This document shows, one piece after another, positions 5,573 to 28,263 of a DNA stretch of 32,000 nt; positions within the stretch are counted from its first letter, which is position 1, and every line of letters starts with the position of its first letter. Source of the stretch: Ignicoccus hospitalis KIN4/I (GTDB lineage: Archaea; Thermoproteota; Thermoprotei_A; Sulfolobales; Ignicoccaceae); contig NC_009776.1 in assembly GCF_000017945.1 (NCBI RefSeq), forward strand, positions 840,001 to 872,000, in the 5' to 3' direction. The notes beneath the pieces are model-generated. The model ran no database searches. It was not told the DNA's origin and saw only the letters and a list, made by a program, of their open reading frames with translations. The translations under genes and the position numbers were made by a program.

Positions 5573-7234
5573 TTACTTAGCGGCGGCCCTGGCGGCCTCC
5601 CAGAGCCGTAGCAAGGTCTTCATGTGCTCTATGTCCTTAGTGAGCTGGTACCAGCCCCTCTTGAAGGTCGTCCAGTCTTGACCGTTCATGGCGGTGCCGT
5701 ACCTTATGCTGTTGCTGTAGAACAGCCAGCTCTCCACCCACAGCTTCTCAATGTATTCGTCGAAGAGCGTGACGGGCTTGGCCAAGTCTACGTGTGCCAG
5801 GCCGCTCTGCCACGCCTTCAGCAGCAGCACGGTAGTCTTTAGGGTGGCCTTGTTGGTCTCCTCTATCTGGGTGTCCAGCAGCCTCATCCTGTACTCCGCG
5901 TACTCGGTGTTGTGACACGCGGAGCATATCTTCACCATCTGCTCCCTCCTCTTGGCCATCTCCTCCTCGCTTATCAGGCCGGGGCTGCCGTCCGGCAGAG
6001 TGGCGTAGAGGAACTTACCGGTCTTGATGTCGGGGGCTAAGCTTATCGGCATGGGTAGCTTCACGCCGACTAATGCCTTAGCTATGGTGAGGCCTTGCTT
6101 CGCCAAGGCTTCAGCGGTGCTCTCCGGCATGGCTTCTACGCTGAGCTTGAAGTGCTGGCCGGTCCTAGGCATCGGGTGGGCGTATATCAGGCCGAACAGC
6201 CTCACCCACAGCCTGGTGTCCACGTTGTGGGTCCTCTCCGCTATCACTTCACCGGTCACCGGGTTGACTAGCAGGCTCATGTGACACGTGGCACAAGTGG
6301 GCGCGGTGAAGTCGGCTCCCGGCTTCCATGCCGGCGCCTTCATGTTGTACTTCTTGTGGTGCATGAACCATATGTTGCCGTGCTTGCTCTCCTTCCACAC
6401 GTTGAACGCCGGCACGTCGGGGTCTAGGTGGCACTGCCCACAAGTGTAGGGGCTCCTAGCTATCTCTATGTCGAAGCTGTGCCTCGGGTGGCAAGCGGTA
6501 CAAGCGCCCAGGCTGCCGTCGGGGTTCACCCTACCGACGCCGTGGTTGGGGTAGCCCTCGTACTTCACCAAGGTGACCGGTATGCCGTGAGATATGGTGT
6601 CAACGGTACCTACGACCTTGACCACGGTGCCGTGGCATGCTAGACAGCTGGTCTCTTGGCTGGTCCTCTCGCCACCGAAGGTCTTGCCCATACAAGTGAA
6701 CATGGTGCTGGCGTTAACTAGAGCTCTGTATATGGGGTTATGCATCAAGTTGTAGTAGGCCCAAGCCTTGCTGCTCTTGGAGTACTGCTCTACTTCGGTC
6801 CTGTGGCAGACAGCACAGTCGTTGGGGGTCACTATGGGGTGTATCTTGAAGCCGAAGTGGTCTATGGTGTCAGGGTGCTTCTCGGGGTTGAGGCCGTGGC
6901 ACTCGTAGCAGCCGACCACCACGTTCCTCAAGTTGGCCGGTATCTCGTCCAGCGGGGTGCTCACTTCCCTCTCCAGAGCTGGCTTCTGCCAAGCTTCAGC
7001 CGGGGTCACGTGGGCCATCTTGCTCTTGAGCCAGTCGGCCACTATGCCCGGAGTGACGCTTATGTGACAGCTGAGACACGTCTTGGTCTGCGGGCTAACG
7101 TTCTTCAGTTTGGCGACGGCCTCTTGGAGGTTCACAGTGTTAGCCATTTCGTCGTGAGCCATCATGTGTCCCATAGGCATGGCGAGGAGCGCGGTCGCCA
7201 GTAGGAGAGCCAGCAGCGCGCCCCTCATGGTCAC
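5573..7234 (-). CDS. Secreted or membrane-associated octaheme cytochrome c, hydroxylamine-oxidoreductase (HAO)-like family
   Basis: Eight canonical CxxCH motifs: C53LSCH, C109YECH, C140AVCH, C197LACH, C245TACH, C265GQCH, C314ATCH, C437SACH. No CxxCK motif. The N-terminus is a hydrophobic signal or anchor (MTMRGALLALLLATALLAMP). The C-terminal third is helical. Confidence 0.93.
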   Translation of the reverse strand: MTMRGALLALLLATALLAMPMGHMMAHDEMANTVNLQEAVAKLKNVSPQTKTCLSCHISVTPGIVADWLKSKMAHVTPAEAWQKPALEREVSTPLDEIPANLRNVVVGCYECHGLNPEKHPDTIDHFGFKIHPIVTPNDCAVCHRTEVEQYSKSSKAWAYYNLMHNPIYRALVNASTMFTCMGKTFGGERTSQETSCLACHGTVVKVVGTVDTISHGIPVTLVKYEGYPNHGVGRVNPDGSLGACTACHPRHSFDIEIARSPYTCGQCHLDPDVPAFNVWKESKHGNIWFMHHKKYNMKAPAWKPGADFTAPTCATCHMSLLVNPVTGEVIAERTHNVDTRLWVRLFGLIYAHPMPRTGQHFKLSVEAMPESTAEALAKQGLTIAKALVGVKLPMPISLAPDIKTGKFLYATLPDGSPGLISEEEMAKRREQMVKICSACHNTEYAEYRMRLLDTQIEETNKATLKTTVLLLKAWQSGLAHVDLAKPVTLFDEYIEKLWVESWLFYSNSIRYGTAMNGQDWTTFKRGWYQLTKDIEHMKTLLRLWEAARAAAK

Positions 7235-9033: not shown

Positions 9034-10489
9034 GGAGTTCAACCCGGTACATAAGTATAATCCGAGGAAGGGCCCCCGCGTAGCGCTCTTCTACCCGGCC
9101 CCCTATTCTGTGGCCTCCCAAAGCTTGGGCTTCCAGCTGCTCTACGCGTACTTCGTCAGCTACGGGGTGAGGGTTGAGAGGTTCACTTACGACTCTTGCG
9201 GGACGAGCCTGGAGTCCGGCAAGACTTTAAAAGAGTTCGACGTAGTAGTGGTCTCATCGTCCTTCGAGCTGGACTACCCCTACTTATCTGAGTATTTGAG
9301 GAAGTACGGCCGCGAGGGACAAAGAGTAATAGCCGGAGGTATCGCGCCTACGTCCAATCCCATACCGATATTAGACGTGGTGACCAACGTGGTGCTCGCT
9401 GACGTAGAAATTGCTGTGCCCAGTGTTGTAGACGCGCTATTCAGCGGGGATTGGGAAAGCTTCGAGTCCTTAGAGTTCGTGGTCTCTGGGGAGGACGACG
9501 AGGGCAAGAGGGCTTACGCGAACGTCGCTGAGGAGCCGCTGCTATCGACCCAGTTCGTACCCTTGGACTTCGACCCTCCGTGGGGCAAGGGGTTCCTCGT
9601 GGAGGTGACCAGAGGCTGCCCTTGGAAGTGCCGCTTCTGCCTAGAGGGTTGGGTCACCAAGCCCTTCCGCCAGAGGGACGTGGAGCAAGTCAAGAGGGCC
9701 CTAGCTAACGTCCGTAGGCCGTTCGAGAAGGTAATAACCATCTCTCTGAGCTTAGGTAATTATGAGTCAGTAGACGAGTACTTGGACTCATTGATCGAAC
9801 TTAAGAGAAAGAGGAAGGTGCAAGGCTCAGTGCCCAGCCTAAGGTTGGAGACAGTTACGGAGGAGTTGCTCGAGAAAGTTAAGGGTTTGGGTCAGAGGAC
9901 CGTAACGGTCGCGCCGGAGACCTTCGACCCGTTGAAGGCCCGCGTGCTGGGCAAGGGCTATGCTCCAGAATTCTTTAAAGAGAAAGTAAGCATAATCAAT
10001 AAACTCAACTTAAAGCTAAAAGTATACATGATGGTTGTTCCCGGGGAGCCTGCGAGGGTTACGGAGGGCGACGCGGAGGTCTTGAAGGAACTGGCGCCGG
10101 GCTCCCACGTCTCGGTGAACCCCTTAGTACCCAAGCCTTGGACCCCCCTTCAAGGGGCCCCCATTCCCGGAGAGAGGGAGGAGAGGGCTTTGTCCGTCTT
10201 CGCGGAGAAGTTGAGATACGTCGACTTGTACCCGGTCAAGTGGGCCCGCTTGCAAGCCGCGCTCGGCCTAGCGAGGAGGCCTTTGGGCAAGCACTTAGCT
10301 CCCACCTCCGACCCAGAAGGACTGATAAGGGAACTGAACGAAAGGGGACTGATTTCCTTGAAAGAGTTAGAAAGCTGGAGGACCGATTGGGACGAACCTT
10401 GGTTGAGGTTCAGGGTGGGAGACTTGAAGGAAATAAAGAGGCTCGGCGAGGACAGCTACGAGGCTTGGAAGGAGCTGATCAGCTCGTGA
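8984..10489 (+). CDS. Radical SAM enzyme with N-terminal B12-binding-like/flavodoxin-like domain, function unknown
   Basis: VEVTRGCPWKCRFCLEGW contains the CxxxCxxC [4Fe-4S]/SAM motif. The N-terminus (RVALFYPAPYSVASQSLGFQLLYAYF) resembles the TIGR03960-type radical SAM family. The start must be the GTG at 8984 or at 8999, because there are no later in-frame starts. Confidence 0.82.
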   Translation: MKSADVTRIRLCDKTVREFNPVHKYNPRKGPRVALFYPAPYSVASQSLGFQLLYAYFVSYGVRVERFTYDSCGTSLESGKTLKEFDVVVVSSSFELDYPYLSEYLRKYGREGQRVIAGGIAPTSNPIPILDVVTNVVLADVEIAVPSVVDALFSGDWESFESLEFVVSGEDDEGKRAYANVAEEPLLSTQFVPLDFDPPWGKGFLVEVTRGCPWKCRFCLEGWVTKPFRQRDVEQVKRALANVRRPFEKVITISLSLGNYESVDEYLDSLIELKRKRKVQGSVPSLRLETVTEELLEKVKGLGQRTVTVAPETFDPLKARVLGKGYAPEFFKEKVSIINKLNLKLKVYMMVVPGEPARVTEGDAEVLKELAPGSHVSVNPLVPKPWTPLQGAPIPGEREERALSVFAEKLRYVDLYPVKWARLQAALGLARRPLGKHLAPTSDPEGLIRELNERGLISLKELESWRTDWDEPWLRFRVGDLKEIKRLGEDSYEAWKELISS

Positions 10490-11813
10490 AGACCGGGGAG
10501 CCCTCGTCCACCGAGGAGCCCTTCTTCAGCATCTCGTGTAGGTCCTTCTCCGGGTCGCCGACGAGCCTCAAATCGAACTCTTTCACCAACTTCTCTAGCA
10601 CGTTGGGCGTGAAGAACTTCGGGAGGACAGGGCCTATGTAGATACCTCTTATGCCTAAGTACAGCAAGGAGTACAGGATTGCGACGGCCTTCTGTTCCAT
10701 CCAGCTTAGGACAATGCTTACGGGCAAGTTGTTAAGGTCCTTTCCAAGCCTCTTCGCCAGCTCGGAAGCGATGACCAGTATCGAATATACGTTGTTGCAT
10801 TGGCCGAAGTCCATGAACCGGGGTATGCCCTCTATAGTGCCGTAGTTCCTATTGTTATAGTGGAACTTGGCACACGCGGCGCTCAGTATTATGGAGTCCT
10901 TAGGCACGAGCTCGGTAAACCTCTTGTAGTAGCTCATCTTGGGGTTCGGCAAGTCACAGCCGCCCACCACGAAGACGTGCCTTATCTTACCCTCGTTGAT
11001 CAAATCTATCACCTTGTCCAGCAACGGTAGTACGTTCGTGTGGTGGAAGCCCGTAACGAGCTTACCTCCCTCCTTCTTCTCCAGCCTCGGGGTCTCTAGG
11101 GCTCTCTTTATGGCGGGCGTGAAGTCCCCTTCTAGGTGGGGCACCCCCTCGAGCCCGGCTATGTCGGTAGTGAAAATCCTGTTCGCGTAGGCGGGGGTAG
11201 GCTGTTGGACGCAGTTGCTCGTGCCTATTATGACCCCGGGGAACTGGGCGAACTCCCTCTTCTGGTAGACCCAGCTGCCTCCCCAGTTACCGTAGAGGCT
11301 GGGGAAGGCCTTCAGCTTGGGGTACGAGTGAGCCGGGAGCATTTCTGAGTGGGTGTAGACCTTTATCTCGTCTTCCAAACCCATTTCCCTTATCTGTTTC
11401 AAAAGCTCGTACAGCGGCTTGTAGCTGTGACCCGTGACCAATATGCCGTGACCCTCCTCGGTCCCCGTAGGGACCTCCACCACTTGGGGCGCTCCGAAGG
11501 TCTCAACGTACGCTTTGTCCAACAGCTCCATAGTCTTTATGTGTATCCTTCCGGCTTCCAATATCATTTTGATGAAGTTTTCCTTGCTGAAGTCTACGTT
11601 AGTCAGAGTTTTGTACAGAGCTGAGGCCAAGAAGTAACTTATCTCGGGGTCGTCGTAGCCCAAGGAGCGCGCGTGATAATAATATGCGGAGATCCCCTTG
11701 AGGCCGTATATGAGGGCCTCTTGGAGGGACTGCAGGTCGGCGTCCTTACCGCACACGCCGTAGGAGGTGCACCCCCTAGGGGGCAAGCTCATGGCGCATT
11801 GGTCACAGAGCAT
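10479..11813 (-). CDS. hcp: Hybrid-cluster protein / hydroxylamine reductase (short, class III-like)
   Basis: MLCDQCAMSLPPRGCTSYGVCGK gives the N-terminal CxxCx8Cx5C cubane motif. Hcp-like sequence continues throughout (..GILVTGHSY.., ..NCVQQP.., ..VVGGCD.., ..FGQCNN..). I place the start at the ATG at 11813 (MLCDQC). The track's TTG at 11939 adds 42 non-conserved residues. Confidence 0.9.
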   Translation of the reverse strand: MLCDQCAMSLPPRGCTSYGVCGKDADLQSLQEALIYGLKGISAYYYHARSLGYDDPEISYFLASALYKTLTNVDFSKENFIKMILEAGRIHIKTMELLDKAYVETFGAPQVVEVPTGTEEGHGILVTGHSYKPLYELLKQIREMGLEDEIKVYTHSEMLPAHSYPKLKAFPSLYGNWGGSWVYQKREFAQFPGVIIGTSNCVQQPTPAYANRIFTTDIAGLEGVPHLEGDFTPAIKRALETPRLEKKEGGKLVTGFHHTNVLPLLDKVIDLINEGKIRHVFVVGGCDLPNPKMSYYKRFTELVPKDSIILSAACAKFHYNNRNYGTIEGIPRFMDFGQCNNVYSILVIASELAKRLGKDLNNLPVSIVLSWMEQKAVAILYSLLYLGIRGIYIGPVLPKFFTPNVLEKLVKEFDLRLVGDPEKDLHEMLKKGSSVDEGSPVFTS

Positions 11814-11967
11814 GGGAACGGTCTCGACCTTTGACACGTGCGAACCCCTCGGGAAGGGTAGAAACGCCTTCTTGCTTAGAACGTTTTGATCGAACGCGTT
11901 ACCGTCTTCACTCCCCTTCCCTCTCGCATAAACCCCCAACGGACGTACTCTAACAATAGCTAACTGT

Positions 11968-13626
11968 TCAGTACTCTAACGCCCCTCCCTTGTCGGCGCT
12001 CAAGGCCATCTTCGCGTACCTCCTAAGTATTCCCCTCCTCAAGGGCTTCACCTTCGGCTTCCAGCGAGCCCTCCTCTCCTCTAGCTCCTTCTCGTCCACC
12101 AGCAAGTCTAACCTCCTCTTCTCGATATCTATCACTATCTCGTCGCCGTCTTGAACGAGCGCTATGGGCCCTCCGGCGGCGGCCTCGGGGGAGACGTGGC
12201 CTATCGCTGGCCCCCTAGTGGCCCCCGAGAAGCGGCCGTCCGTCACCAGCGCTACCTTATCGCCCAAGCCGAGCGCCATAACTGCTGCAGTGGCCGTCAA
12301 CATCTCGCGCATCCCGGGCCCCCCTCTCGGGCCCTCGTACCTGATCACTATTACGGTCCCGGGCTCTATCTCGCCCCCTCTGATGGCCTTTACCGCGTCC
12401 TCCTCTCTGTCAAAGACCCTCGCCACGCCCTTGAACTTCCAGAGCTCCCTCTTCACGGCTGAAGCCTTAACCACGGCTCCGTTAGGGGCCAAGGAGCCCT
12501 TGAGTATGGCAAGGCCTCCGAAGGGACTGTAGGGGTTATCCAAAGGCCTTATTACTTCTCTATCCAAGACTGCCGCGTCCTTAACGTTCTCCCAGACGGT
12601 CTTGCCGGTCACGGTCAAGGCGTCCTTGTGAATGAGACCGGCCTCCCCGAGCTCTTTTAGTACTGCCGGAATCCCCCCGGCTCTGTCCAAGTCCACTACG
12701 AAGTGTCTCCCGGAAGGCGATATGGAAGCTATGTGGGGCACCTTGCGGGATATTTCGTCGAACACTTCGAGGGGTAAGTCTATTCCGAGCTCGTACGCTA
12801 ACGCTTCCAAGTGTAGCACGGAGTTGGTAGAGCCGCCCAACGCCATGTCCACGGCTATAGCGTTCTCTAATGCCTTCCTTGTCAGTATTTTGTCGGGAGT
12901 CAGTCCCTCTTCCACCATTTTTACTATTCTCATACCGGTAAGCTTGGCGTACCAGAGCCTCCTCGCCTCCACTGCTGGTACCGTGGACGCGCCCGGCAAC
13001 ATCAACCCCATGGCTTCCGAGAGCATATTCATCGTGTTTGCCGTGAAGAGGCCCGCGCAGCTGCCCGGGCCGGGGAGCGCGCTCTCCTCTAACTTCCTTA
13101 GTTCTTCCGTTCTTCCCTCCTTAATGAGGACGTTCATCCTCTCCATGAGGTCCTTGAAGTCTATCCGTTCCTTGCCGTATACGCCGGGCATCATGGGGCC
13201 GCCGTTGATCAGAATTACCGGGACCTCCAGCCTGGCCGCGGCCAACAAGAAGCCCGGAGTTATCTTGTCGCAGTTGGTCACCATAACTACGGCGTCCAGC
13301 CTGTGAGCTTCCACCATTATTTCGACAGTGTCTGCTATGACCTCCCTAGAAGGCAGCGAATACCTCATCCCCTCGTGACCCATTGCGATCCCGTCGCATA
13401 CGGCGATGGTGCCGAACTCCAGCGGAGTGCCCCCTGCCATCCTTATCCCGGCCTTTACCGCCTCCGCTACCTTGTCCAAGTGGACGTGGCCGGGGACTAT
13501 TTCGTTCCAAGAGTTCGCCACTCCTATTAGAGGCCTCCTCAGCTCTTCGTCAATTAGCCCAGAGGCCCTCCACAGAGCCCTATGAGGGGCGTACTCCGGC
13601 CTCAAGAAGACGTCGCTTCTCTTCAA
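11968..13626 (-). CDS. ilvD: Dihydroxy-acid dehydratase
   Basis: Full-length match to the IlvD/Edd family: [91 protein letters not shown]. Confidence 0.96.
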
Positions 13627-19952: not shown

Positions 19953-20180
19953 ATGAAACGCGAGGCCGTAGCGCTCGCCTTTCTTGGAGCCATCTTACTC
20001 GTAGTCTCCTTCCTCCCAGACCCCTTCTTCCTGACCCTCTTGAGGGCCCTAGTGATGATGTTAGGTGCCTATTCTCTTTATATAGCTAAGAAAGTTTGGG
20101 AGTTGGAAAAGGGGTTTAATGAAGCAGTTAGGGTGGGAGAAAAGATAAAGAAGAAGTTGGACGAGCTACAGGTATCCTAA
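19953..20180 (+). CDS. Hypothetical small membrane protein (75 aa, two TM helices plus a basic amphipathic tail)
   Basis: ATG lies 9 nt after the uL23 stop, behind an AAGGTGG SD. Hydrophobic segments are VALAFLGAILLVVSFL and LLRALVMMLGAYSLYI. No family recognised. Confidence 0.4.
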   Translation: MKREAVALAFLGAILLVVSFLPDPFFLTLLRALVMMLGAYSLYIAKKVWELEKGFNEAVRVGEKIKKKLDELQVS

Positions 20181-20366
20181 GCTCCTCAGCCTCTCCACGA
20201 CCTCGCGCACGTCCTCCTCCTTAATTTCCACCGCGCTGGTGGCTTCTTCGACTAGGAATTTCACGAACTCCTTAACGTCCTTAAAGCCCGCCTCCTCAGC
20301 CGCTTTGACTAGCCTGGCGAGCTCCTCTTCGTTGAGTTCCACGCAGACCTTCCCCACACCTCTCAC
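20166..20366 (-). CDS. Small ribbon-helix-helix-like protein (66 aa), paralog of 23424..23636, C-terminal ERLRSLGYL tail
   Basis: KVCVELNEEELARLVKAAEEAGFKDVKEFVKFLVEEA fits a beta-strand/helix/helix (RHH, CopG/Arc-like) pattern. The GTG start overlaps the cysC stop (GTGA). Confidence 0.6.
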   Translation of the reverse strand: MRGVGKVCVELNEEELARLVKAAEEAGFKDVKEFVKFLVEEATSAVEIKEEDVREVVERLRSLGYL

Positions 20367-20902
20367 CCGAGCTTCTCCAATACGAAGTTCAATAACTTCT
20401 TTTCGCTCTCCTCCACGTCTTCCTTCTCAGTGTCCAAAACTAGGTCCGGGCTCTCCGGGGGCTCGTAGGGGTCGCTCACTCCAGTAAAGTTCTTTATTTC
20501 ACCCTTTAGCGCCTTCTTGTACAACCCCTTCGGGTCCCTCCTAATGCACTCTTCCAACGAGGCCTTTACGTAGATCTCGTAGAAGGGGACCTCCTCGCTG
20601 ACTATCCTCTTAACCTCCTCCCTCACGTCTCTATAAGGCGAAACGAAGGAACAGAAAACCACGACGCCGTTCCTCGCGAGCAGCCGGGCTATCCAAGCTA
20701 CCCTCTTCAAATGGAGGGCCCTCTCCTCCTTCGTGAAGCCTGCGTCGGGGTTGATGGTCTTGCGGACCCAGTCGCCGTCCAGGACCTCGACCCTGTAACC
20801 CATTTCGGACAGTTTCTTCGCTACCCTCTTGGCCAAGGTAGTCTTCCCGCTGCCCGGGAGTCCCGTTAACCAGAACACCGAGCCCTTATCGAGACACTTC
20901 AT
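20363..20902 (-). CDS. cysC: Adenylylsulfate (APS) kinase
   Basis: GSVFWLTGLPGSGKTTLA..LDGDWVR..GFTKEER..HLKRVAWIARLLARNGVVVFCSFVSPY..EIYVKASLEECIRRDPKGLYKKA are canonical CysC motifs. Confidence 0.92.
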   Translation of the reverse strand: MKCLDKGSVFWLTGLPGSGKTTLAKRVAKKLSEMGYRVEVLDGDWVRKTINPDAGFTKEERALHLKRVAWIARLLARNGVVVFCSFVSPYRDVREEVKRIVSEEVPFYEIYVKASLEECIRRDPKGLYKKALKGEIKNFTGVSDPYEPPESPDLVLDTEKEDVEESEKKLLNFVLEKLG

Positions 20903-22223
20903 CGAGTAGTTCCCTCAGCAGCCCGTAGACCTCGTGAGCTTGAATAACGCCCCTCTCCCCGGAATACCTACCTTCGGGGTCGTAGATCGCCGTAATGCCG
21001 TACCAGTCGTGAACCGCGTCGTCCGCGCCTCTGTCATCCTTGTCCATGTAGAGCTCCCCCCAGCCCACCGTACCTATGGGCTTCCAGTCGAGGTCTGCGA
21101 AGAATGCCATCAAGTCCGGAGCGTCCCCCCTAACCTCCGGGTATATCTCTGAGGGCTCGTAAACCTCGTTCTTCCAAGGCTCCCCTCGGGGCCCGGCGAC
21201 GCGGGAGAGCTTCTCCTTCAGCTCCCTCACGACGTCCTCGTACTCGCTCTGGTCCACCACCCCGTACTTCTCCCTCCCCTTCAAGTTGACGAACACCCTA
21301 GAGTAGTAGCCTCCCCAAGCCCAAGCGAGCGTCTTGCCCCAGTCCACCAACTCCTCGCTGAGTTGCTCGCCCCTCTTGGGTTCTCTCTTGAACTTCAAGA
21401 AGCCCTCCCTTTCCAGCCACTCATTAATCACAAAGGTACCTTTCATAGGCTTTATGCCGTGGTCGCTCAGAAAGACTATCACTGCGTCCTTGAGCGACCC
21501 CTCCAACATCCTCGCGGCCCACTCGTCCACCCGCCGGTAGACCTCCGGTATCACGTTCAGCTCTTCGTTTTCCTCGTACTTCGGGTGGGACTTCTCGAAG
21601 TACCGCAAGAAGGCGTGGTGGGCCCTGTCTATGCCTATTTCAACGTATATGAAGAAGTCCCACTTTTTCTTAGTAACGATATACTCTACTACCTTTAGGT
21701 GGCTGTCTAACATCTTTAACAAATCTTTCTTAACCGCCTCCTTATCGAAGCTGTTGTACTTTATGTCGAAGAGCGGCTTGCCGACCCGCCTTTCCAGCTC
21801 GAGCCTCAGAGAAGGCGGGTAGGCCCAGTTCTCAGCTTGCGAAGGGGTGGTGAAGTCGGTCACCACGTAGCCGTATATCGGCTTAGGCGGGTAAGTAGGG
21901 GGGACCCCGAAGAGGGCGCTCCTAAGCCCCTTTTCGGCGGCGTAGTCCCAAACGGTCTTAGCCTTGAAGTATCTTGAATTAACTATATAGTAGTCGAACG
22001 ACCCGGGCTTGCGGTGCCGAAAGCCGTAAACCCCTAACTCTCCCGGAGTCTTCCCCGTGAACATGACCATCCAAGCGGGAACTGTTATCGGGGGGTAGCA
22101 GCTCCTCATGTGCCACTTGGCAGATTCCTTTATGTAGGAGTGCAAGTTGGGGAAGAACTTATTCCCCATTTCGTAGAAATACCTCGGAGGCATCGAGTCC
22201 AAGCCCAGTACGAAGACCTTCAT
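20886..22223 (-). CDS. Cytoplasmic alkaline-phosphatase-superfamily enzyme, NPP (type I phosphodiesterase/nucleotide pyrophosphatase)-like
   Basis: VLGLDSMPP (metal-ligand Asp), CYPPITVPAWMVMFTGKTPGELGVYGF (NPP-type Thr nucleophile motif yP..T.P....l.TG..P..HG), DRAHHAF and VFLSDHGIKP (DHG metal site). No signal peptide or TM helix. Its stop overlaps the cysC start by 17 nt. Confidence 0.78.
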   Translation of the reverse strand: MKVFVLGLDSMPPRYFYEMGNKFFPNLHSYIKESAKWHMRSCYPPITVPAWMVMFTGKTPGELGVYGFRHRKPGSFDYYIVNSRYFKAKTVWDYAAEKGLRSALFGVPPTYPPKPIYGYVVTDFTTPSQAENWAYPPSLRLELERRVGKPLFDIKYNSFDKEAVKKDLLKMLDSHLKVVEYIVTKKKWDFFIYVEIGIDRAHHAFLRYFEKSHPKYEENEELNVIPEVYRRVDEWAARMLEGSLKDAVIVFLSDHGIKPMKGTFVINEWLEREGFLKFKREPKRGEQLSEELVDWGKTLAWAWGGYYSRVFVNLKGREKYGVVDQSEYEDVVRELKEKLSRVAGPRGEPWKNEVYEPSEIYPEVRGDAPDLMAFFADLDWKPIGTVGWGELYMDKDDRGADDAVHDWYGITAIYDPEGRYSGERGVIQAHEVYGLLRELLDEVSR

Positions 22224-22258
22224 CGTTAAGTGCCCTCGGAGCCTGGCGACGGTCGGTT

Positions 22259-23407
22259 TTAATGAACGAATGGGTCCTCGAACGAGAGGACCACCTCCGC
22301 CACCTCGGGCCTCATCATGTACTCCGGAGGCCTCTTCCCCTCCATTATCATCTTCCTGAGCTTCGTCCCGCTAATTCTAATCCTGTACTCCTCCGGGTGT
22401 GGACAAATCTTCTCGTTGACCATACCTCCGCACTTCTTGCAGTAGAACGCCTCCCTGACGAAGAGGGGAGTTATGCCTAAGTCGGGGAAGTTCTTAAATA
22501 TGTCCCAGGCCTCGTAGGGCCCGTAGTAGTTGCCCACTCCGGCGTGGTCCCTGCCCACTATGAAGTGGGTGGCGCCGAAGTTCTTCCTCACTATTGCGTG
22601 GTGCACGGCCTCCCTCGGGCCGGCGTACCTCATCTCCATTCGTAGCACTGAGAACGCAACTGAGTCCTTCGGGTAGTAGTGTTCTATCAAAGCCTCATAC
22701 GCCTTTATTATTACCTCGTCCCTGAAGTCGCCCGGCTTCTTCCAGCCCACCAGCGGGTTCACGAAAAGGCCGTCGGTGAACGTCAACGCGGCCTTCTGGA
22801 CGTACTCGTGGCCCAAGTGGGGGACGTTCCTGGTCTGAAAGGCGGCCACCCTCTTCCAGCCCTTTTGTTCGAACAGAACTCTGGTCTCCTTGGGCCACAA
22901 CCTATATTTCTCGAAGGGCTCAGGTACGTCGCTTATCTGGATCAGGGGGCCCCCGAGCAAGTAGTCCTTCTTATTGAAGACCTTTCTGACCCCCGGGTGG
23001 TTCAAGTCGTCCGTCTTGAACACCTTTAACGTGTGGTAGTTCTTGTCCCAAGGGAAGATTTCCTCTACATAGAGTATGGCTATCGGCTTACCCTTGAAGA
23101 ATATAGCCACTTCGTCACCCTCTCTGACACTTTTCTTGACGTTCTCGTCCACGTCTAGGATTATAGGTATGGTCCAAGGAAGGTCGTTGCTGAGCCTCAT
23201 GAACTCTAACACGCTGAGGTAGTCTTCCCTCACCATGAAGCCTTCCAGGGGCGAGTAGACCCCGTGGGCGACGTTAGCGACGTCCGCGGCCAAGCCTTCA
23301 TCTACTTGTACGTTTACCATTTCCTTCGCTTCTTCAACCAACCTCTCTCGGGTCTTGCCCTTCGCTACCCTCTCCACTAACTTGCCCCCGTGAGGCTTGG
23401 AGACCAA
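22259..23407 (-). CDS. sat: Sulfate adenylyltransferase (ATP sulfurylase)
   Basis: KPHGGKLVERV.., AFQTRNVPHLGHEYV (QTRNPxHxxH motif), HFIVGRDHAGVG and the C-terminal zinc-ribbon-like CKKCGGMVNEKICPH are typical of archaeal and bacterial Sat. Confidence 0.95.
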   Translation of the reverse strand: MVSKPHGGKLVERVAKGKTRERLVEEAKEMVNVQVDEGLAADVANVAHGVYSPLEGFMVREDYLSVLEFMRLSNDLPWTIPIILDVDENVKKSVREGDEVAIFFKGKPIAILYVEEIFPWDKNYHTLKVFKTDDLNHPGVRKVFNKKDYLLGGPLIQISDVPEPFEKYRLWPKETRVLFEQKGWKRVAAFQTRNVPHLGHEYVQKAALTFTDGLFVNPLVGWKKPGDFRDEVIIKAYEALIEHYYPKDSVAFSVLRMEMRYAGPREAVHHAIVRKNFGATHFIVGRDHAGVGNYYGPYEAWDIFKNFPDLGITPLFVREAFYCKKCGGMVNEKICPHPEEYRIRISGTKLRKMIMEGKRPPEYMMRPEVAEVVLSFEDPFVH

Positions 23408-23423
23408 GGTCTCACCACCTCGC

Positions 23424-23636
23424 TCACAAGTAGCCCAAGCTCCTCAGCCTTTCTATGATCTCCTTCCTCTCTTCCTCGCTTATGTTTGCCTCCTCCACCT
23501 CCTCTTCTAACTTGGCCAAGGCCTCCCTTAGGAGGTGGATGAGGAGGGTGTTAGGGTCCTCGAAGCCGGTCTTCGCGGCTAACTCCCTTAGTCTGTTGTA
23601 AAGCGTAACTGGTACTTTCACCTCCTTCCACTCCAC
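23424..23636 (-). CDS. Small ribbon-helix-helix-like protein (about 70 aa), paralog of 20166..20366, C-terminal ERLRSLGYL tail
   Basis: VKVPVTLYNRLRELAAKTGFEDPNTLLIHLLREAL aligns with the 66-aa paralog. The ORF is open up to 23786 (120 aa), but the extra N-terminus would overlap the divergent permease gene. The GTG at 23636 lies 28 nt downstream of a TATA (ATTAAAG) and gives a paralog-sized product. The start is uncertain. Confidence 0.55.
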   Translation of the reverse strand: MEWKEVKVPVTLYNRLRELAAKTGFEDPNTLLIHLLREALAKLEEEVEEANISEEERKEIIERLRSLGYL

Positions 23637-23663
23637 CCGCTTCCCCGCCCCCGATCGAACGCC

Positions 23664-23670
23664 CTTTAAT
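23664..23670. promoter_or_regulatory. Single AT-rich TATA element (CTTTAAT / ATTAAAG) centred between divergent start codons at 23636 (-) and 23701 (+)
   Basis: It is the only AT-rich element in the 64-bp GC-rich spacer. Its edges are 28 nt and 31 nt from the two candidate start codons. Confidence 0.4.
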
Positions 23671-23700
23671 CTGCTGATTTTGAGGCGAGGCCCGAAAGCC

Positions 23701-24414
23701 ATGTGGGAGTGGTTCGTCGTCGGCTTGGTTTCGTCGTTGTTGGACCAGACGCTGGCCTTGGGCTTCGGCTTGACCTCTTCGCTCATACTGGTCAGCGCGC
23801 TCGGCGCCGACCCGAGGGAGGTTGTGCCGACAATATTGGCAGCCCAAGCTCTGACCTCCGTGCCGGCGTACTTGATAATACGGAAGCTTAAAGTGCCCAG
23901 TCAACTGTTCTTGTTCTTGCTAGTTACATCAGTAATGACGGTAATACTCCCTTTCGGATTGAAAGCTTTGAAGACCAAAGACGCCTTGGCGCTGTATTCG
24001 TTATCGCTGTTCTTGACAGTAGCTATAATGGTAGCTATGGATAAGGGTTTCCTAAAGCCCGACCTAAAGGCCACGTTGTTGTTATCGCTCCTAGTCTCTT
24101 TGGATAAAGTTATGGTAGGCGGAGGCTTGAGCCTAGCACTAGTTATATTACAAAAATCCATGGGCGTTAGTTTAAGCGAGGCGTTGATGTCATTACCAGT
24201 GATAAAGGCTCTACCCGTGCTCACTTCCCTCATAGGCTATTGCGGCTCCTCCCTCTGCCCGAGGCCCGCGCCGTCGTTCGCGATGGCCGCGGGCGCGGCC
24301 TTGGGGAGCTACGCGAGCAAGAAGCTCCACTCGAAAATAAGAATAAGGGACGAGTACTCGGTCCTCTTGCTCTTGATCGGAGCAGCGGTGAGCGCGCTGC
24401 GCGCGCTTTATTGA
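23701..24414 (+). CDS. TauE/SafE (TSUP, DUF81) family anion permease
   Basis: A roughly 238-aa polytopic protein with the internally duplicated motif LDQTLALGFGLTSSLILVSALGADPREVVPT.. and LDKVMVGGGLSLALVILQKSMGVSLSEALMS.., characteristic of the TSUP/sulfite-exporter family. The ATG at 23701 is preferred over the track start at 23680. Confidence 0.62.
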   Translation: MWEWFVVGLVSSLLDQTLALGFGLTSSLILVSALGADPREVVPTILAAQALTSVPAYLIIRKLKVPSQLFLFLLVTSVMTVILPFGLKALKTKDALALYSLSLFLTVAIMVAMDKGFLKPDLKATLLLSLLVSLDKVMVGGGLSLALVILQKSMGVSLSEALMSLPVIKALPVLTSLIGYCGSSLCPRPAPSFAMAAGAALGSYASKKLHSKIRIRDEYSVLLLLIGAAVSALRALY

Positions 24415-24446: not shown

Positions 24447-25841
24447 GTGGAAAGGAAGTTGCTACTCCTAGTTGGGGACTCGCTGAGGGCCGACTCGTTT
24501 AAGCGTTACGTACCTAAGGCCTCGGAGTACAAGGAGCTGGTGCCGGCCTATTCCCAGACGCCCGGCGCCACCTTTTCCCTCCTCTTCGGGCGCCACCTCA
24601 CCCACGTCTTCTGGCCTACGGAGCTTAACCCCATGACGGTCTTAAGGTTCGCCGGGATAGAGACTCTAAAGGACACTTCTGCCACTTTCGGAATTTTCAA
24701 CTTCATTCCCACCTTGTCCAAGCTGTTGGCTGAGGAGTCCGTGGTACACGCCTTGAGGAAGGCCGGCGTTCGTACCATGGTATACAGCCAGCTCGACAGC
24801 CCCCCGCTGAGCCTTCCCCCGTTTGACGTGGAAGACTTGGCGAACACAACTAGATTGCGATTAGATTACGTAAGCAGAGCAATCCTGGCAGTCTCTTGGC
24901 GTCTGGCGACCGTAGCCACTAAGAGGTATAGAAACCTGGGCAAGATGGCATTGCTGAACACGATAATAGACGTTTTGCCTTGGAAGAAGGGCATAATATT
25001 TGAAGCTGGAAACTTCCCAGCGAGGCACCTTTACGAGGACATGGCAGAGGTCGCTATATACAAACTGAAGAAGCTCAAGGGCGATTGGTTCGTCTACTTC
25101 CACGCCTTCACTCCTCACGGCGAGTACTCTTGCGGCGAGTTCCGGCACGCCTTGGACCTCCACATGCTCACTTGGAGCTTTAACGTACACGTGGGGGAGC
25201 TGCTGAAGCTGTACCAAGTGGACTCCTTGGAGAGATTGCTTCGGTATTACCGAACGTGCGACGTCATAAGGGATGTCCTTGAGGACGAGGGCATCTTCAG
25301 AAAGCTGAGGACTGCTTACGAGGAGTGCGTAAAGCTCTTCGCGAGCTTCGTGAAGCGGCTTGAGGAGGAACTCGTCCCCGAGGGCTGGACGGTCATAGTA
25401 ACTTCTGACCACCCGGAGTACTTCGGCGAGGATTGCCTCAGCGGCCACCCCCCTCTGGTCCCCCTTAGGAGGCCGCCGGAGAGGGTCCCCTTGCTCCTGC
25501 TGGGAGAGGGCAGCTTGGAAGGGGTGAGGGCTTACACTCAGATACCGGAGCTCGTGGCCGAGCACTTCTCCGTCCGGTGGGCTGCCCCATCCTCCGACGA
25601 GGTGTTAGTTACCATACCCTACTTGAGGGACAACAAGTGGAGCATTATGGTCGTGTCCACGGACGGCGACAAAACGGCTTACCACGCTGTAGACGAAAGC
25701 GGCAATGAGGTCTGGGGAGGCCCGGAAGAGTTACGAGAGGCAATCTCTCAGCACGAGCGCCGGGCCGCGGAGGAAAGGAAGAAGATAATAAACCGCCTAA
25801 AGATAAAGCTCAAGCTTCGGAGGAGACTCCTCAACAAATAA
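24447..25841 (+). CDS. Second cytoplasmic alkaline-phosphatase-superfamily protein (sulfatase/LtaS/PglZ-like core) with a strongly basic C-terminal tail
   Basis: LLLLVGDSLRADSF (N-terminal metal-ligand Asp strand), YSQTPGATFSLLFGRH (nucleophile-motif position, Thr where sulfatases have Cys/Ser), VIVTSDHPEYFGE (SDH metal site). No signal peptide. The tail is ERKKIINRLKIKLKLRRRLLNK. GTG start. Confidence 0.6.
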   Translation: MERKLLLLVGDSLRADSFKRYVPKASEYKELVPAYSQTPGATFSLLFGRHLTHVFWPTELNPMTVLRFAGIETLKDTSATFGIFNFIPTLSKLLAEESVVHALRKAGVRTMVYSQLDSPPLSLPPFDVEDLANTTRLRLDYVSRAILAVSWRLATVATKRYRNLGKMALLNTIIDVLPWKKGIIFEAGNFPARHLYEDMAEVAIYKLKKLKGDWFVYFHAFTPHGEYSCGEFRHALDLHMLTWSFNVHVGELLKLYQVDSLERLLRYYRTCDVIRDVLEDEGIFRKLRTAYEECVKLFASFVKRLEEELVPEGWTVIVTSDHPEYFGEDCLSGHPPLVPLRRPPERVPLLLLGEGSLEGVRAYTQIPELVAEHFSVRWAAPSSDEVLVTIPYLRDNKWSIMVVSTDGDKTAYHAVDESGNEVWGGPEELREAISQHERRAAEERKKIINRLKIKLKLRRRLLNK

Positions 25842-26320: not shown

Positions 26321-27361
26321 TTACCTCCTAAGCAGTTGGTCAAGCTCGGCCAGCAGCTGCTGCCTGAACGACTTGGACAGCGGCGCATAGCCCATCTTGA
26401 TGGAGGCCTTTTGAAGCTCGTCGCTGAGCAAGTACTTGACGAAGTCTACTATCTGCTTCAGCTTCGGAGAGTCCCTGAAGAAGATTATGTAGGGGGTCGC
26501 CACTATGGGGTAGGAGTCCTTGCCCGGGGCCAGCACCAGCGAGTCTGCGTAGAAGTAAGGGGCGTGGAGCACGCATATCCAGCGCTTCGCGGCGCCGGCG
26601 GTGGCGGCGCTTATGGTCTCCGGAGTGGGCAGCACGAAGTTACCCTCAGCGTTCTTCAGGGCGGCGGTGGGGAGCTTCGCTTGGACTGCGTAGGCGTACT
26701 CCACGTAGCCTATGCTGTAGGACGTCTTACTGACGGTCGCGGCGACTCCTTGGTTCTTCGGGGCGCCGATGCCCCTTCCCACCTTATCAACGGGCCAGTT
26801 TATCACCAAATGGGAACCTATCTTAGCGTTCCACTCCGCCGAAGACTTGGCCAAGTACTTGGTGAAGACGGCTGTAGTGCCAGAGGCGTCGGAGCGGTGA
26901 ACGGCTATTATCGGCTTGTGGGGGAGCTTCGCGGCCACCTCGGGGTCTTGGAGCGCCTTTATCCTAGGGTCGTCCCAGTACTTTATCTTACCCATGTAAA
27001 TTTCCGCCAGCACTTCCCCGTCCAGCTTGAGTACCTTGTTCCCTAGCTCGGGTACGTTGTATATCACTACCACGGAGCCCGCCACTACTGGTACGTGTAC
27101 AACTTGCTTCCCCTCAAAGAGAAGTGGGGCGTACCTCTCCTTCGGTATAGGCACGTCGCTCCCGGCGAAGTCGGTTAGGTGGTTCAGCAAGTTGGCTATG
27201 CCGGCCCCAGAGCCCACGCCTTGATACGTTACGTGGGCTGCCTTGTAGTAGTACGCTGCGAGGGATACGAAGGGATAGACGAAGGTCGAGCCGCTCCCGT
27301 AGAGGGAAGCGGCTATGACCGCGTGGCTCAACAAGAGCGAAGCTACTAATGCAGTCCTCAT
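26321..27361 (-). CDS. pstS: PstS-family phosphate-binding protein (solute-binding component), no cognate permease or ATPase genes adjacent
   Basis: Signal or anchor MRTALVASLLLSHAVIAASL, then GSGSTFVYP, YQGVGSGAGI, DFAGSDVP and HRSDASGTTAVFTKYL. These match the phosphate-ligand motifs of PstS. Confidence 0.82.
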   Translation of the reverse strand: MRTALVASLLLSHAVIAASLYGSGSTFVYPFVSLAAYYYKAAHVTYQGVGSGAGIANLLNHLTDFAGSDVPIPKERYAPLLFEGKQVVHVPVVAGSVVVIYNVPELGNKVLKLDGEVLAEIYMGKIKYWDDPRIKALQDPEVAAKLPHKPIIAVHRSDASGTTAVFTKYLAKSSAEWNAKIGSHLVINWPVDKVGRGIGAPKNQGVAATVSKTSYSIGYVEYAYAVQAKLPTAALKNAEGNFVLPTPETISAATAGAAKRWICVLHAPYFYADSLVLAPGKDSYPIVATPYIIFFRDSPKLKQIVDFVKYLLSDELQKASIKMGYAPLSKSFRQQLLAELDQLLRR

Positions 27362-28153: not shown

Positions 28154-28263
28154 TGGTGCCGCCGCGGGGATTTGAACCCCGGGCCACCGGGTCTCCCAAG
28201 CCTTCGGTTCTCGCGTACCGGACCTTATGGGCCCGGCGCTCTGCCCGGCTGAGCTACGGCGGC
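28154..28263 (-). tRNA. tRNA with CAT anticodon (elongator Met or Ile2), 33-nt intron at 37/38, genomically encoded CCA
   Basis: Reverse complement: GCCGCCG-TA-GCTC-AGCCGGGCA-GAGC-G-CCGGG-CCCATA[AGGTCCGGTACGCGAGAACCGAAGGCTTGGGAG]A-CCCGG-TGGCC-CGGGG-TTCAAAT-CCCCG-CGGCGGC-A-CCA. All four stems are Watson-Crick. The anticodon CAT is the complement of ATG at 28227-28229. Confidence 0.88.
28193..28225 (-). other. tRNA intron with a canonical helix-bulge-helix-bulge-helix (BHB) splicing motif
   Basis: Loop nt CCCA (32-35) pair with the intron 3' UGGG as a 4-bp central helix. This helix is flanked by 3-nt bulges UA|A and AG|A that carry the splice sites. The outer helix is GGUC/GGCU. Confidence 0.7.

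Follow-up and report, generated by a model that had tools for sequence, protein, structure and literature searches.

A PAPS-forming operon of a described type in Ignicoccus hospitalis, with an embedded NPP-fold enzyme that is probably a dedicated pyrophosphatase

A stretch of 32 kb from Ignicoccus hospitalis KIN4/I, referred to here as the window, carries a compact operon for the activation of sulfate, in which the gene for an enzyme of the NPP fold lies between those for ATP sulfurylase (Sat) and APS kinase (CysC). The reading favored here, with a probability of about 0.7, is that this is a PAPS-forming operon of a described type and that the NPP-fold enzyme is a dedicated, high-affinity pyrophosphatase which pulls ATP sulfurylase forward. 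The cluster is a conserved sulfate-activation module and is not new; a preliminary description had taken the sat-NPP-cysC arrangement as one that had not been described, however its T. onnurineus counterpart was characterized in 2009 (Lee et al., as cited in PMC4463584) and the cluster was drawn for euryarchaeal and crenarchaeal genomes in 2021 (PMC8268124).

Organization of the operon and its neighbors

Five co-directional genes on the minus strand make up the operon, and the ORF listing together with reading of the sequence reproduced every coordinate of the packing that had been claimed. In gene order, these are rhhA (23424..23636), which has a GTG start and encodes a 70 aa ribbon-helix-helix (RHH)-like putative regulator of the CopG/NikR type; sat (22259..23407), encoding a 382 aa ATP sulfurylase (sulfate adenylyltransferase) from a TTG start; the gene for the NPP-fold PF01663 enzyme (20886..22223), a cytoplasmic, 445 aa member of the alkaline-phosphatase superfamily; cysC (20363..20902), encoding the 179 aa APS kinase; and rhhB (20166..20366), which encodes a 63–66 aa paralog of RhhA and closes the operon. 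The cluster is as compact as first described: a 16 nt gap containing GAGGTGGTGA ahead of the sat TTG start is followed by a 35 nt gap between sat and the PF01663 gene, a 17 nt overlap of the end of that gene with the start of cysC, and a 4 nt overlap (GTGA) of cysC with rhhB. The longest rhhA ORF extends to 23786, but the public annotation of identical contigs has the 70 aa form. For rhhB, the start within the overlap is the GTG at 20366; an alternative GTG at 20357, 5 nt past the cysC stop, gives the 63 aa protein that is called on public contigs and has the same length as the orthologue at locus L085. Going by gene spacing only, the operon is probably transcribed as one polycistronic mRNA that begins at the rhhA start codon or close to it.

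The assignments of the two activation enzymes are clear. Sat matches PF14306 (PUA_2) and PF01747 (3.6e-96) and scores 541.6 bits against NF003166 (cut-off 387); the motifs HxxH (HLGH) and GRDHAG are present, and the N-terminus read from the TTG start, MVSKPHGGK, matches that of homologs. CysC matches PF01583 at 1.8e-59 and TIGR00455 with 219.3 bits (cut-off 138.7), and carries the P-loop GLPGSGKTT as well as LDGD and FVSP.

The small proteins at either end of the operon share a conserved C-terminal motif, ERLRSLGYL, and RhhB can be aligned with RhhA and its orthologues. A profile of 20 RhhA orthologues matches the RHH domain of NikR (2bj1) with E = 0.0021, Pfam RHH_1 matches 10 of the 20 members below threshold, and in the AF2 model of RhhA three helices follow an extended N-terminus. 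About 49 of 81 loci have an rhhA-type gene immediately upstream of sat, and the P. yayanosii counterpart has been named a putative copG factor (PMC8268124). RhhB belongs to a distinct subfamily whose genes follow the NPP gene or cysC in Pyrodictiaceae, Acidilobaceae and Aeropyrum as well as in close relatives of the window organism. Both RHH-like proteins probably regulate the operon.

Divergent from the operon is a gene for a TauE/SafE (DUF81, TSUP-family) permease (23725..24414, plus strand), with the start coordinate taken from a 229 aa public gene call. Its match to PF01925 is weak (1e-06, below cut-off), and its orthologue at locus L087 is called TauE; clear TauE genes adjoin the cluster in 14 loci and also in T. 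onnurineus, an adjacency likewise noted in PMC8268124. The permease is proposed to be a transporter of sulfate or a sulfo-anion. The next gene, beginning 32 nt past it (24447..25841, plus strand), encodes a sulfatase-like alkaline-phosphatase-superfamily protein of 460–464 aa, which matches PF00884 at 4.9e-05 (below cut-off) and has six homologs in a collection of 5.8 billion proteins. Its position is kept in two relatives and differs in a third. It is a lineage-restricted accessory gene outside the widely conserved core.

The embedded NPP-fold enzyme

The 445 aa protein matches PF01663 across the full model length (2.7e-49) and contains all motifs of the claimed Thr nucleophile and Asp/His metal ligands: GLDS (D9), PPITVPAW (T47), DRAHH (D199, H203) and SDHG (D254, H255). 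No signal peptide was found, and the first core β-strand (strand 3-8 of the model) lies directly at the N-terminus; the family match, the intact Thr and metal site and this N-terminus uphold the earlier proposal of a cytoplasmic NPP-fold enzyme. The confident AF2 model (pLDDT 91.6) confirms the NPP fold, with ENPP1, Xac NPP and ENPP6 as the best Foldseek matches and, for classical NPPs and PhnA, E-values of about 1e-15 at query TM-scores of 0.53–0.59. T47 aligns with the nucleophile of PhnA and Xac NPP, as do the SDHG metal ligands. Among 30 diverse family members, D9, T47, D199, H203, D254, H255 and H405 are invariant, as are the basic residues R200, K258, R309 and R317, and R69, H70 and R71 are nearly so.

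In common with Xac NPP (2GSN), ENPP1-7 and the phosphonoacetate hydrolase PhnA (3SZY) the window enzyme has its fold, Pfam family, nucleophile Thr and DHG ligands; however, identity to these proteins is only 12–17%, the aligned core leaves out about 40% of the protein, and the window enzyme is cytoplasmic. The surroundings of the nucleophile also differ. In NPP structures, the aromatic residue after the nucleophile stacks on the base; Xac NPP has T-F-P-N-H-Y here, whereas the window enzyme family has an aliphatic residue (Ile/Val, T-[IV]-P-A-W). In the alignment, the position of the NPP-family Asn is taken by an invariant Phe followed by R-H-R, which speaks for a small substrate of high charge and against a nucleotide slot of the classical kind.

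Two of its relatives belong to known clusters: the enzyme is 45% identical to ACJ17195.1 of T. onnurineus NA1 over 427 aa (E = 5e-127) and 46% identical to PYCH_17550 of P. yayanosii.

Conservation and previous descriptions of the cluster

Linkage was surveyed in 80 species-level loci carrying a homolog of the 445 aa enzyme, 49 of which were well flanked, each side having at least 2.5 kb of sequence. Sat or cysC is near the NPP homolog in 63 of the 80 loci and in 44 of the 49 well-flanked ones, a strongly positive outcome for a survey that had been set beforehand as a refutation test; in the remaining 5 well-flanked loci neither gene is present. In 31 loci, sat, NPP and cysC stand on one strand in exactly this order. 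Linked loci range over Thermoproteota, Asgard archaea, Bathyarchaeia, Nitrososphaeria, Thermococcales, Archaeoglobaceae and several bacterial phyla, with Aminicenantes and Omnitrophota also among the groups that have the cluster. As dozens of unrelated genomes across phyla share this gene order, chance placement is excluded. In 9 well-flanked loci the NPP gene accompanies cysC with no sat within 10 kb, including those of Archaeoglobaceae where the order is RHH, DHH, NPP, CysC; the NPP enzyme is thus tied to CysC and the PAP phosphatase at least as tightly as to Sat.

In T. onnurineus, the cluster comprises TON_1704 (APS kinase), TON_1705 (pyrophosphatase), TON_1706 (PAP phosphatase) and TON_1707 (ATP sulfurylase), as listed in PMC4463584, and the work of Lee et al. 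(2009, J Bacteriol 191:3415) that characterized it is cited there and in PMC9653972. The order found here at the ACJ17195.1 locus (RHH, Sat, DHH, PF01663, APS kinase, TauE) agrees with the published locus tags. The window has Sat, the PF01663 enzyme, APS kinase and the upstream small RHH protein in the same core order, and in both organisms a TauE permease adjoins the cluster. The two differ in that a DHH PAP phosphatase gene, absent from the window cluster, separates sat from the PF01663 gene in T. onnurineus, and TauE there comes after cysC on the same strand, whereas the window has a divergent TauE and a second RHH paralog after cysC. Jin et al. (2021, Fig. 1B; PMC8268124) drew a conserved cluster of a copG-like regulator, sat, (pApase), "type I phosphodiesterase", APS kinase and TauE for P. 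yayanosii (PYCH_17520-17570), Ferroglobus placidus, Aciduliprofundum boonei and, among Crenarchaeota, Aeropyrum pernix and I. hospitalis itself. Degradation of pyrophosphate by its "type I phosphodiesterase/nucleotide pyrophosphatase" was only speculated upon in that paper (PMC8268124). The spread to Asgard archaea, Bathyarchaeia, Nitrososphaeria, Aminicenantes and Omnitrophota goes beyond that account.

Function of the NPP-fold enzyme

The proposed pathway would begin with the entry of sulfate, probably through the divergently encoded permease. Sat would convert ATP and sulfate to APS and pyrophosphate, the embedded enzyme would hydrolyze this pyrophosphate, and CysC would phosphorylate APS to PAPS, so that hydrolysis and phosphorylation jointly pull the strongly unfavorable sulfurylase reaction forward. 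Judging from the fold, the chemistry would use a two-metal site (D9, D254, H255; D199, H203, H405) and Thr47 as nucleophile.

Among the candidate substrates that had been put forward, pyrophosphate agrees with the activity reported for TON_1705, in the accounts of it given by PMC4463584 and PMC9653972, whereas a sulfonucleotide substrate or transfer of a sulfo group found no support in this analysis or the literature examined. The window enzyme probably has the same activity, although an identity of 45% is no guarantee of equal specificity. According to a secondary table in PMC9653972, TON_1705 acts on pyrophosphate with a Km of 18.8 µM, a kcat of 2.1 s-1, a kcat/Km of 1.1x10^5 M-1 s-1 and a pH optimum of 9.5; classical NPPs act on a diester or nucleotide. 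Ton1914, the bulk family I pyrophosphatase of T. onnurineus, has a Km of 1.1 mM and a kcat of about 3x10^4 s-1 (PMC9653972), so that by these tabulated values TON_1705 turns over about four orders of magnitude more slowly with a Km about 60-fold lower. Soluble pyrophosphatases of families I and II, the usual enzymes to pull ATP sulfurylase, have the same proposed job, removal of pyrophosphate that lets APS accumulate, and the need of ATP sulfurylase for fast removal has been noted experimentally (PMC10322725). They differ from the NPP-type enzyme in fold and mechanism, a covalent Thr intermediate being expected for the latter, and in that the NPP-type gene is embedded in the pathway operon.

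The low tabulated kcat of TON_1705 suggests that in the cell another substrate may be used besides pyrophosphate, or may even be the main one. The enzyme could instead serve as a safety valve or in regulation by splitting the phosphosulfate anhydride in APS or PAPS, or some other nucleotide anhydride, with the in vitro pyrophosphatase as a side activity; classical NPPs, whose fold the enzyme matches, do cleave nucleotide pyrophosphate bonds, and at loci that lack sat the gene still accompanies cysC and the DHH PAP phosphatase. This is nonetheless unlikely, as the tabulated Km and kcat/Km for pyrophosphate are physiologically sensible, the aliphatic residue after the nucleophile and the Phe and R-H-R replacement point away from a nucleotide, and destruction of the operon's own product would be futile.

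Considerably less probable is a sulfatase- or sulfotransferase-like role after PAPS, by which the enzyme would transfer or hydrolyze a sulfo group and be the missing PAPS consumer. Sulfatases do belong to the same superfamily and no PAPS consumer was seen in the window, however the active site follows the Thr/bimetal pattern of NPPs rather than the formylglycine pattern, no evidence of such chemistry was found in the family, and conventional consumers are encoded in relatives. Already disfavored, and the most improbable, is a reverse flow in which Sat would produce ATP from APS and pyrophosphate during dissimilatory sulfur oxidation, or a role of the NPP gene as an unrelated phosphate scavenger. 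Sat is reversible, and a gene for the phosphate-binding protein PstS is found 4 kb from the cluster; against this, APS kinase and a pyrophosphate-destroying enzyme are sensible only in the direction of PAPS, Pfam scans found no APS reductase in the window, PstS is conserved near the cluster in close relatives only, and synteny is kept across phyla.

Fate of PAPS

Pfam scans of the ORFs of at least 110 aa in the 32 kb found no PAPS/APS reductase, sulfite reductase, CysQ, DHH-type PAP phosphatase or sulfotransferase, in agreement with the preliminary description as to a reductive branch; four ORFs (192-695, 2326-2814, 3028-4218 and 4273-4830) match no Pfam family, thus this absence is not absolute. 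Given the lack of reductase, sulfotransferase and PAP phosphatase genes, the PAPS consumer would be encoded elsewhere in the genome. The window cluster is flanked by ribosomal protein genes. P. yayanosii, too, reportedly has no recognizable sulfotransferase or reductase (PMC8268124). In T. onnurineus, by contrast, the cluster adjoins a canonical Sulfotransfer_1/3 gene and glycan-synthesis genes, and in a close relative of the window organism rhhB is followed by a sulfotransferase-like gene. From this genomic context, PAPS made by the operon would more likely serve the sulfation of a glycan or metabolite than reduction to sulfide.

Organization of the operon and its gene products

Five minus-strand genes make up the operon, in the order rhhA (23424-23636), sat (22259-23407), the gene for a 445-aa NPP-fold protein (20886-22223), cysC (20363-20902) and rhhB (20166-20366). 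The layout in the preliminary description was reproduced exactly from the ORF list and the sequence itself: 16 nt containing GAGGTGGTGA separate rhhA from sat and 35 nt separate sat from the NPP gene, which overlaps cysC by 17 nt, and cysC in turn overlaps rhhB by 4 nt (GTGA). Translation of rhhB could equally well begin at the in-frame GTG at 20357, giving a 63-aa product; this form is called on public contigs and is seen in an orthologue. The gene spacing and the SD-like sequence before sat suggest that the operon is co-transcribed, and an ATTAAA element roughly 30 nt before the GTG of rhhA is positioned compatibly with a leaderless first gene. An operator search found no inverted repeats in the divergent promoter region (23600-23800). 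Identical copies of the operon proteins occur on metagenome contigs from hot environments.

Rfam matched only tRNA and 5S rRNA in the window and nothing inside the operon. The 5S rRNA gene at 2851-2957 (+) stands alone, and the tRNA match at 28157-28263 (-) spans 107 nt, hence the gene probably contains an intron.

Sat is an ATP sulfurylase of the homo-oligomeric type, with PUA-like and ATP-sulfurylase domains above curated cut-offs in the profile search (NF003166, 541.6 bits against a cut-off of 387; PF01747, 3.6e-96; PF14306, 6.6e-54) and with the motifs HLGH (HxxH) and GRDHAG (GRD). CysC is likewise an APS kinase (TIGR00455, 219.3 bits against a cut-off of 138.7; PF01583, 1.8e-59) that carries the P-loop GLPGSGKTT together with LDGDW and FVSPY. 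A CxxC-x9-CxH segment (CKKCGGMVNEKICPH) is also present at about residues 322-338 of Sat (window 22400-22470), which we take to resemble the zinc site of Thermus ATP sulfurylase.

A divergent NPP-fold enzyme

The protein encoded between sat and cysC matches PF01663 (NPP/type I phosphodiesterase, alkaline-phosphatase superfamily) over its full length, with residues 3-401 on model positions 1-342 of 342 at 169.1 bits (cut-off 23; E=2.7e-49); no NCBIfam model matches it, and its closest named kin are from Hyperthermus, Pyrodictium and Pyrolobus (55-58% identity). All four motifs previously noted (GLDS, PPITVPAW, DRAHH and SDHG) are found, and the reported lack of a signal peptide holds, the chain opening directly on the first core strand. 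The AF2 model (pLDDT 91.6, pTM 0.90) has the alkaline-phosphatase-type alpha/beta core, and its Foldseek hits ENPP1, Xac NPP, ENPP6 and ENPP7 have E values between 1e-14 and 3e-16, a probability of 1.00, query TM-scores of 0.53-0.59 and identities of 12-17%. The structure prediction and active-site comparison that the preliminary description had proposed yield an NPP fold in which the Thr nucleophile and DHG ligands align with those of PhnA and Xac NPP. Among solved structures, a sequence search gave nothing closer than phosphonoacetate hydrolase (E=0.0018); no member of the family therefore has an experimentally solved structure.

In profile alignments, T47 aligns with the nucleophile of PhnA (Ala in the variant entry 3t02) and with T90 of Xac NPP, and the SDHG motif aligns with the family DHG. 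The Thr nucleophile and six Asp/His ligands for two metals are accounted for by D9, T47, D199, H203, D254, H255 and H405, with D199, H203 and H405 assigned by motif position; a set of 30 diverse members from archaea and bacteria keeps all seven without exception, together with the basic residues R200, K258, R309 and R317, and R69, H70 and R71 are nearly invariant.

In classical NPPs a conserved Asn hydrogen-bonds the transferred phosphoryl and an aromatic residue beside the nucleophile stacks on the nucleotide, and it is here that the active site of this family departs from theirs. Where PhnA (GICGN) and Xac NPP (GIVHN) have this Asn, the profile alignments place the invariant Phe68, followed by R69-H70-R71, and T47 is followed by Val or Ile in place of Phe or Tyr, leaving the enzyme with neither the Asn nor the stacking residue. 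The two replacements are read as loss of the nucleotide slot, with a gain of positive charge that would fit a small polyanionic substrate, and the family appears from its alignments to be a divergent NPP subfamily. More distant PF01663 paralogues (21-31% identity) also lie near the cluster in several of the relatives' loci (L026, 3271-4713; L038, 5635-6471; L039, L054, L063, L079 and L084) and sometimes adjoin glycosyltransferase-like genes.

Conservation of the gene cluster

One genome per species (GTDB) was scanned with an alignment of the enzyme family, the best 80 loci of at least 563 relatives were kept, and linkage was scored by tblastn with the window proteins and by independent ORF clustering. 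In these best 80 of at least 563, sat or cysC lies in the flank of 63 and both in that of 44, and in 31 the genes follow one another on a single strand exactly as sat, NPP, cysC. Where the sequence extends for at least 2.5 kb on each side, 44 of 49 loci are linked to sat or cysC. The survey proposed in the preliminary description therefore decisively shows a conserved linkage, and the lack of linkage in related genomes that was to refute the association is not what is seen. On the archaeal side the linked loci belong to Thermoproteota, Bathyarchaeia, Nitrososphaeria, Methanomethylicia, several Asgard lineages, Thermococcus and Archaeoglobaceae, and on the bacterial side to Aminicenantes/Saccharicenans, Omnitrophota and Desulfocucumis. 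The five unlinked loci among the 49 are L017, L022, L028, L045 and L071; copies unlinked to sat or cysC have no other conserved neighbour in common.

Further genes recur around this core. A small RHH gene lies directly upstream of sat in about 49 of 81 loci, and among the loci surveyed a DHH-family gene (PF01368) lies between sat and the NPP gene in 20, a TauE permease gene occurs in 14 and NAD-dependent sugar epimerase/dehydratase genes in 20. In Archaeoglobaceae the locus comprises RHH, DHH, NPP and CysC but lacks sat; those that reduce sulfate presumably carry the sulfurylase gene elsewhere, with the dissimilatory genes. Clusters of NPP and CysC with no sat within 10 kb were seen at L049, L052, L060, L066 and L083 (Archaeoglobaceae) and also at L046, L072, L080 and L084, with RHH and/or DHH in most of them.

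Copies of the Thermococcus-type enzyme share 69-91% identity among Pyrococcus, Methanocaldococcus, Methanotorris, Geoglobus, Archaeoglobus, Korarchaeum and Asgard MAGs. Such high similarity between distant phyla points to horizontal transfer, and as it lies far above the expectation for vertical descent, it would imply that the cassette spread horizontally, and recently, among hyperthermophiles.

Relation to described clusters

The arrangement was thought in the preliminary description to be new as a pathway module, a claim that has to be withdrawn: the Thermococcus onnurineus cluster goes back to Lee et al. 2009 (J Bacteriol 191:3415), as cited by PMC4463584, and an activity of its embedded enzyme appears in Table 1 of PMC9653972. 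In that table TON_1705 is a pyrophosphatase with a pH optimum of 9.5 and a kcat of 2.1 s-1, and the Km for pyrophosphate is given as 18.8 µM (kcat/Km 1.1x10^5 M-1 s-1); the family I enzyme of the same organism, Ton1914, has a kcat of about 3x10^4 s-1 and a Km of 1.1 mM (PMC9653972). Hydrolysis of inorganic pyrophosphate by this enzyme type is reported only for TON_1705 (PMC9653972, PMC4463584). The Pyrococcus yayanosii cluster comprises a copG-like factor, ATP sulfurylase, a DHH PAP phosphatase (pApase), PYCH_17550 and APS kinase, with DUF81/TauE adjacent; PYCH_17550 is named a 'type I phosphodiesterase/nucleotide pyrophosphatase' and 'speculated' to degrade PPi, and the cluster is also shown in F. 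placidus, A. boonei, A. pernix and I. hospitalis itself (PMC8268124). An NPP-type pyrophosphatase is not discussed in the ANME assimilation paper or the M. thermolithotrophicus paper, and the annotation of TON_1705 is absent from the supplement of PMC4463584.

A search seeded with the Thermococcus homologue recovered PYCH_17550, to which the window enzyme is 46% identical over 423 aa. A cluster look-up gave the protein of T. onnurineus NA1 (ACJ17195.1/B6YUW7), a full-length homologue of the window enzyme with 45% identity across 427 aa (E=5e-127). Contigs encoding ACJ17195.1 carry, on one strand, RHH (75 aa), Sat, DHH, the PF01663 protein (476 aa), APS kinase and TauE; since this order matches TON_1707, 1706, 1705 and 1704 in the published locus tags (PMC4463584), we infer that ACJ17195.1 is TON_1705. 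The window gene occupies the position of TON_1705 and PYCH_17550, co-directional beside sat and cysC with a small RHH gene upstream. Its operon is a further example of this known cluster type with minor layout variations: the TON_1704-1707 and P. yayanosii clusters include a pApase and the window has none, the window adds a second RHH paralogue, and its TauE gene is divergent.

Next to this divergent gene, the window encodes at 24447-25841 (+) a cytoplasmic sulfatase-like protein of the alkaline-phosphatase superfamily, with a Pfam match only below threshold and without the CxPxR motif. It has six homologues among 5.8 billion proteins. In two relatives the gene likewise follows TauE next to the PAPS operon, and in a more distant one it is flanked by the TIP49 and rpl3 genes, some 3 kb away from cysC-rhhB. 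This near-orphan gene has a loose tie to the operon. The product of 26321-27361 (-), considered as a periplasmic sulfate-binding protein, is the phosphate-binding PstS (TIGR00975, 309 bits), and no pstCAB genes adjoin it within the window. The gene lies 0.5 kb past the sulfatase-like gene and a cupin gene, a neighbourhood repeated at another locus, L088. Elsewhere in the window are genes for a 553-aa multihaem c-type cytochrome matching several cytochrome Pfam families (5573-7234, -) and a hybrid-cluster protein/hydroxylamine reductase (10479-11939, -; TIGR01703, 621 bits).

Small RHH-like proteins

The small proteins encoded with the cluster are likely to be regulators. A profile built from their orthologues hits the NikR RHH domain of P. 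horikoshii (E=0.0021), and 10 of 20 members match Pfam RHH_1, the best at 2.3e-4 and below the gathering score; the family has no Pfam or NCBIfam model of its own. A single-sequence model shows an extended N-terminus and three helices, for which Foldseek, run on the monomer, gave no significant match. All 55 copies recovered from archaea and bacteria (L001-L082) end in (K/E)RL(R/K)xLGY(L/I), to which a D, E or G may be added and ahead of which lies an acidic linker, and F25, L64, L67, G68 and Y69 are invariant in an alignment of 20. Ligand sensing, oligomerisation and partner docking are possibilities for this C-terminal helix. A PDB search with the motif matched nothing, and a weak profile resemblance to the C-terminus of the APS kinase chain 7yq0 was dropped as not significant (E=0.76).

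A second RHH subfamily (GGFxSVxELVEFLLxE...EDEEKVKERLRALGYI) follows the NPP gene or cysC and closes the cluster on its 3' side, so that these operons are bracketed by two paralogous small proteins. Its genes lie at 20166-20366 in the window and, among the relatives' loci, at L005 4007-4144, L006 11437-11577, L007 11361-11501, L015 5820-5963, L021 1608-1748, L037 4079-4279 and L085 12497-12688; the hosts are Pyrodictiaceae, Acidilobaceae, Aeropyrum and relatives of I. hospitalis.

Fate of PAPS

Within the reach of Pfam scans of every ORF of at least 110 aa, four of which match no family, the absence of a reductive branch noted earlier is borne out: none of the products encoded in the 32 kb was recognised as a PAPS/APS reductase, sulfite reductase, CysQ, DHH phosphatase or sulfotransferase. 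A search for PAPS consumers in the window and the 80 loci, by motif scanning and by tblastn with two sulfotransferase-like queries, was likewise negative, and ten immediate neighbours inspected in diverse loci appear unrelated. At L085, from a relative of I. hospitalis, a 265-aa ORF (11670-12467, -) directly follows cysC-rhhB on the same strand and contains the sulfotransferase-like motifs FNGTPRSGTAYL (5'-PSB) and HIIRDPVSVCLSF (3'-PB); with no Pfam or NCBIfam match and no counterpart in the window, it is a candidate divergent PAPS-dependent sulfotransferase. Beyond TauE in the T. onnurineus cluster (L089, 7035-11431) are genes for a Wzx-like polysaccharide flippase, a convergent Sulfotransfer_1/3 protein, an epimerase/dehydratase and a DegT aminotransferase. 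Sugar-nucleotide epimerase genes recur near the cluster, and in Aminicenantes they directly follow cysC.

The T. onnurineus cluster is treated in the papers cited here as sulfate assimilation; the neighbouring genes suggest that its PAPS may feed glycan sulfation. In P. yayanosii no reductase or sulfotransferase was identified, and the significance of archaeal sulfate assimilation was called still unclear (PMC8268124). Together, the T. onnurineus sulfotransferase and glycan genes, the L085 ORF and the nearby epimerases favour sulfation over reduction; for I. hospitalis itself this would hold by analogy with its relatives.

Proposed role of the enzyme

The equilibrium of ATP sulfurylase demands very low PPi. 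In the best-supported account, sulfate would enter probably through the TauE/TSUP permease, Sat would form APS and PPi, the NPP-fold enzyme would remove the PPi with high affinity, and CysC would trap the APS as PAPS. Removal of pyrophosphate was rate-limiting in a reconstituted archaeal Sat/CysC assay (PMC10322725), and the Km of TON_1705, which on the values tabulated in PMC9653972 is roughly 60-fold below that of the bulk pyrophosphatase, provides a rationale for a dedicated enzyme. A reverse, ATP-yielding role of Sat and a chance placement of the gene are both ruled out by the presence of CysC and by synteny. The interpretation in the preliminary description stands in part: a cytoplasmic NPP-fold enzyme with conserved linkage to sat and cysC is supported, but its further suggestion of sulfo-group transfer by the enzyme is unlikely because canonical sulfotransferase genes adjoin related clusters.

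The low kcat tabulated for TON_1705 on pyrophosphate (PMC9653972) and the persistence of the NPP gene beside cysC and the DHH phosphatase gene in loci that lack sat would both suit an enzyme with sulfonucleotide-directed activity or a scaffolding role, a reading that we consider improbable beside high-affinity PPi removal. With the fate of PAPS unsettled in several hosts, the same observations leave a small chance that PPi hydrolysis is not the main job, the enzyme acting on a sulfonucleotide or as the hub of a Sat-CysC(-pApase) assembly within a mobile, RHH-governed PAPS cassette, where the invariant C-terminal helix (RL[RK]xLGY[LI]) might sense a pathway intermediate. If true, this would describe a horizontally mobile supply-and-control cassette, governed by a dedicated RHH family, that provides PAPS for the sulfation of glycans or metabolites or for pAp/PAPS signalling.

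The survey shows the cassette to be far more widespread than published, extending to Asgard archaea, Bathyarchaeia, Nitrososphaeria, Aminicenantes and Omnitrophota. The purpose of PAPS in many anaerobic hyperthermophiles has been called unclear in the literature, and the neighbouring sulfotransferase and glycan genes point to sulfation, not assimilation.
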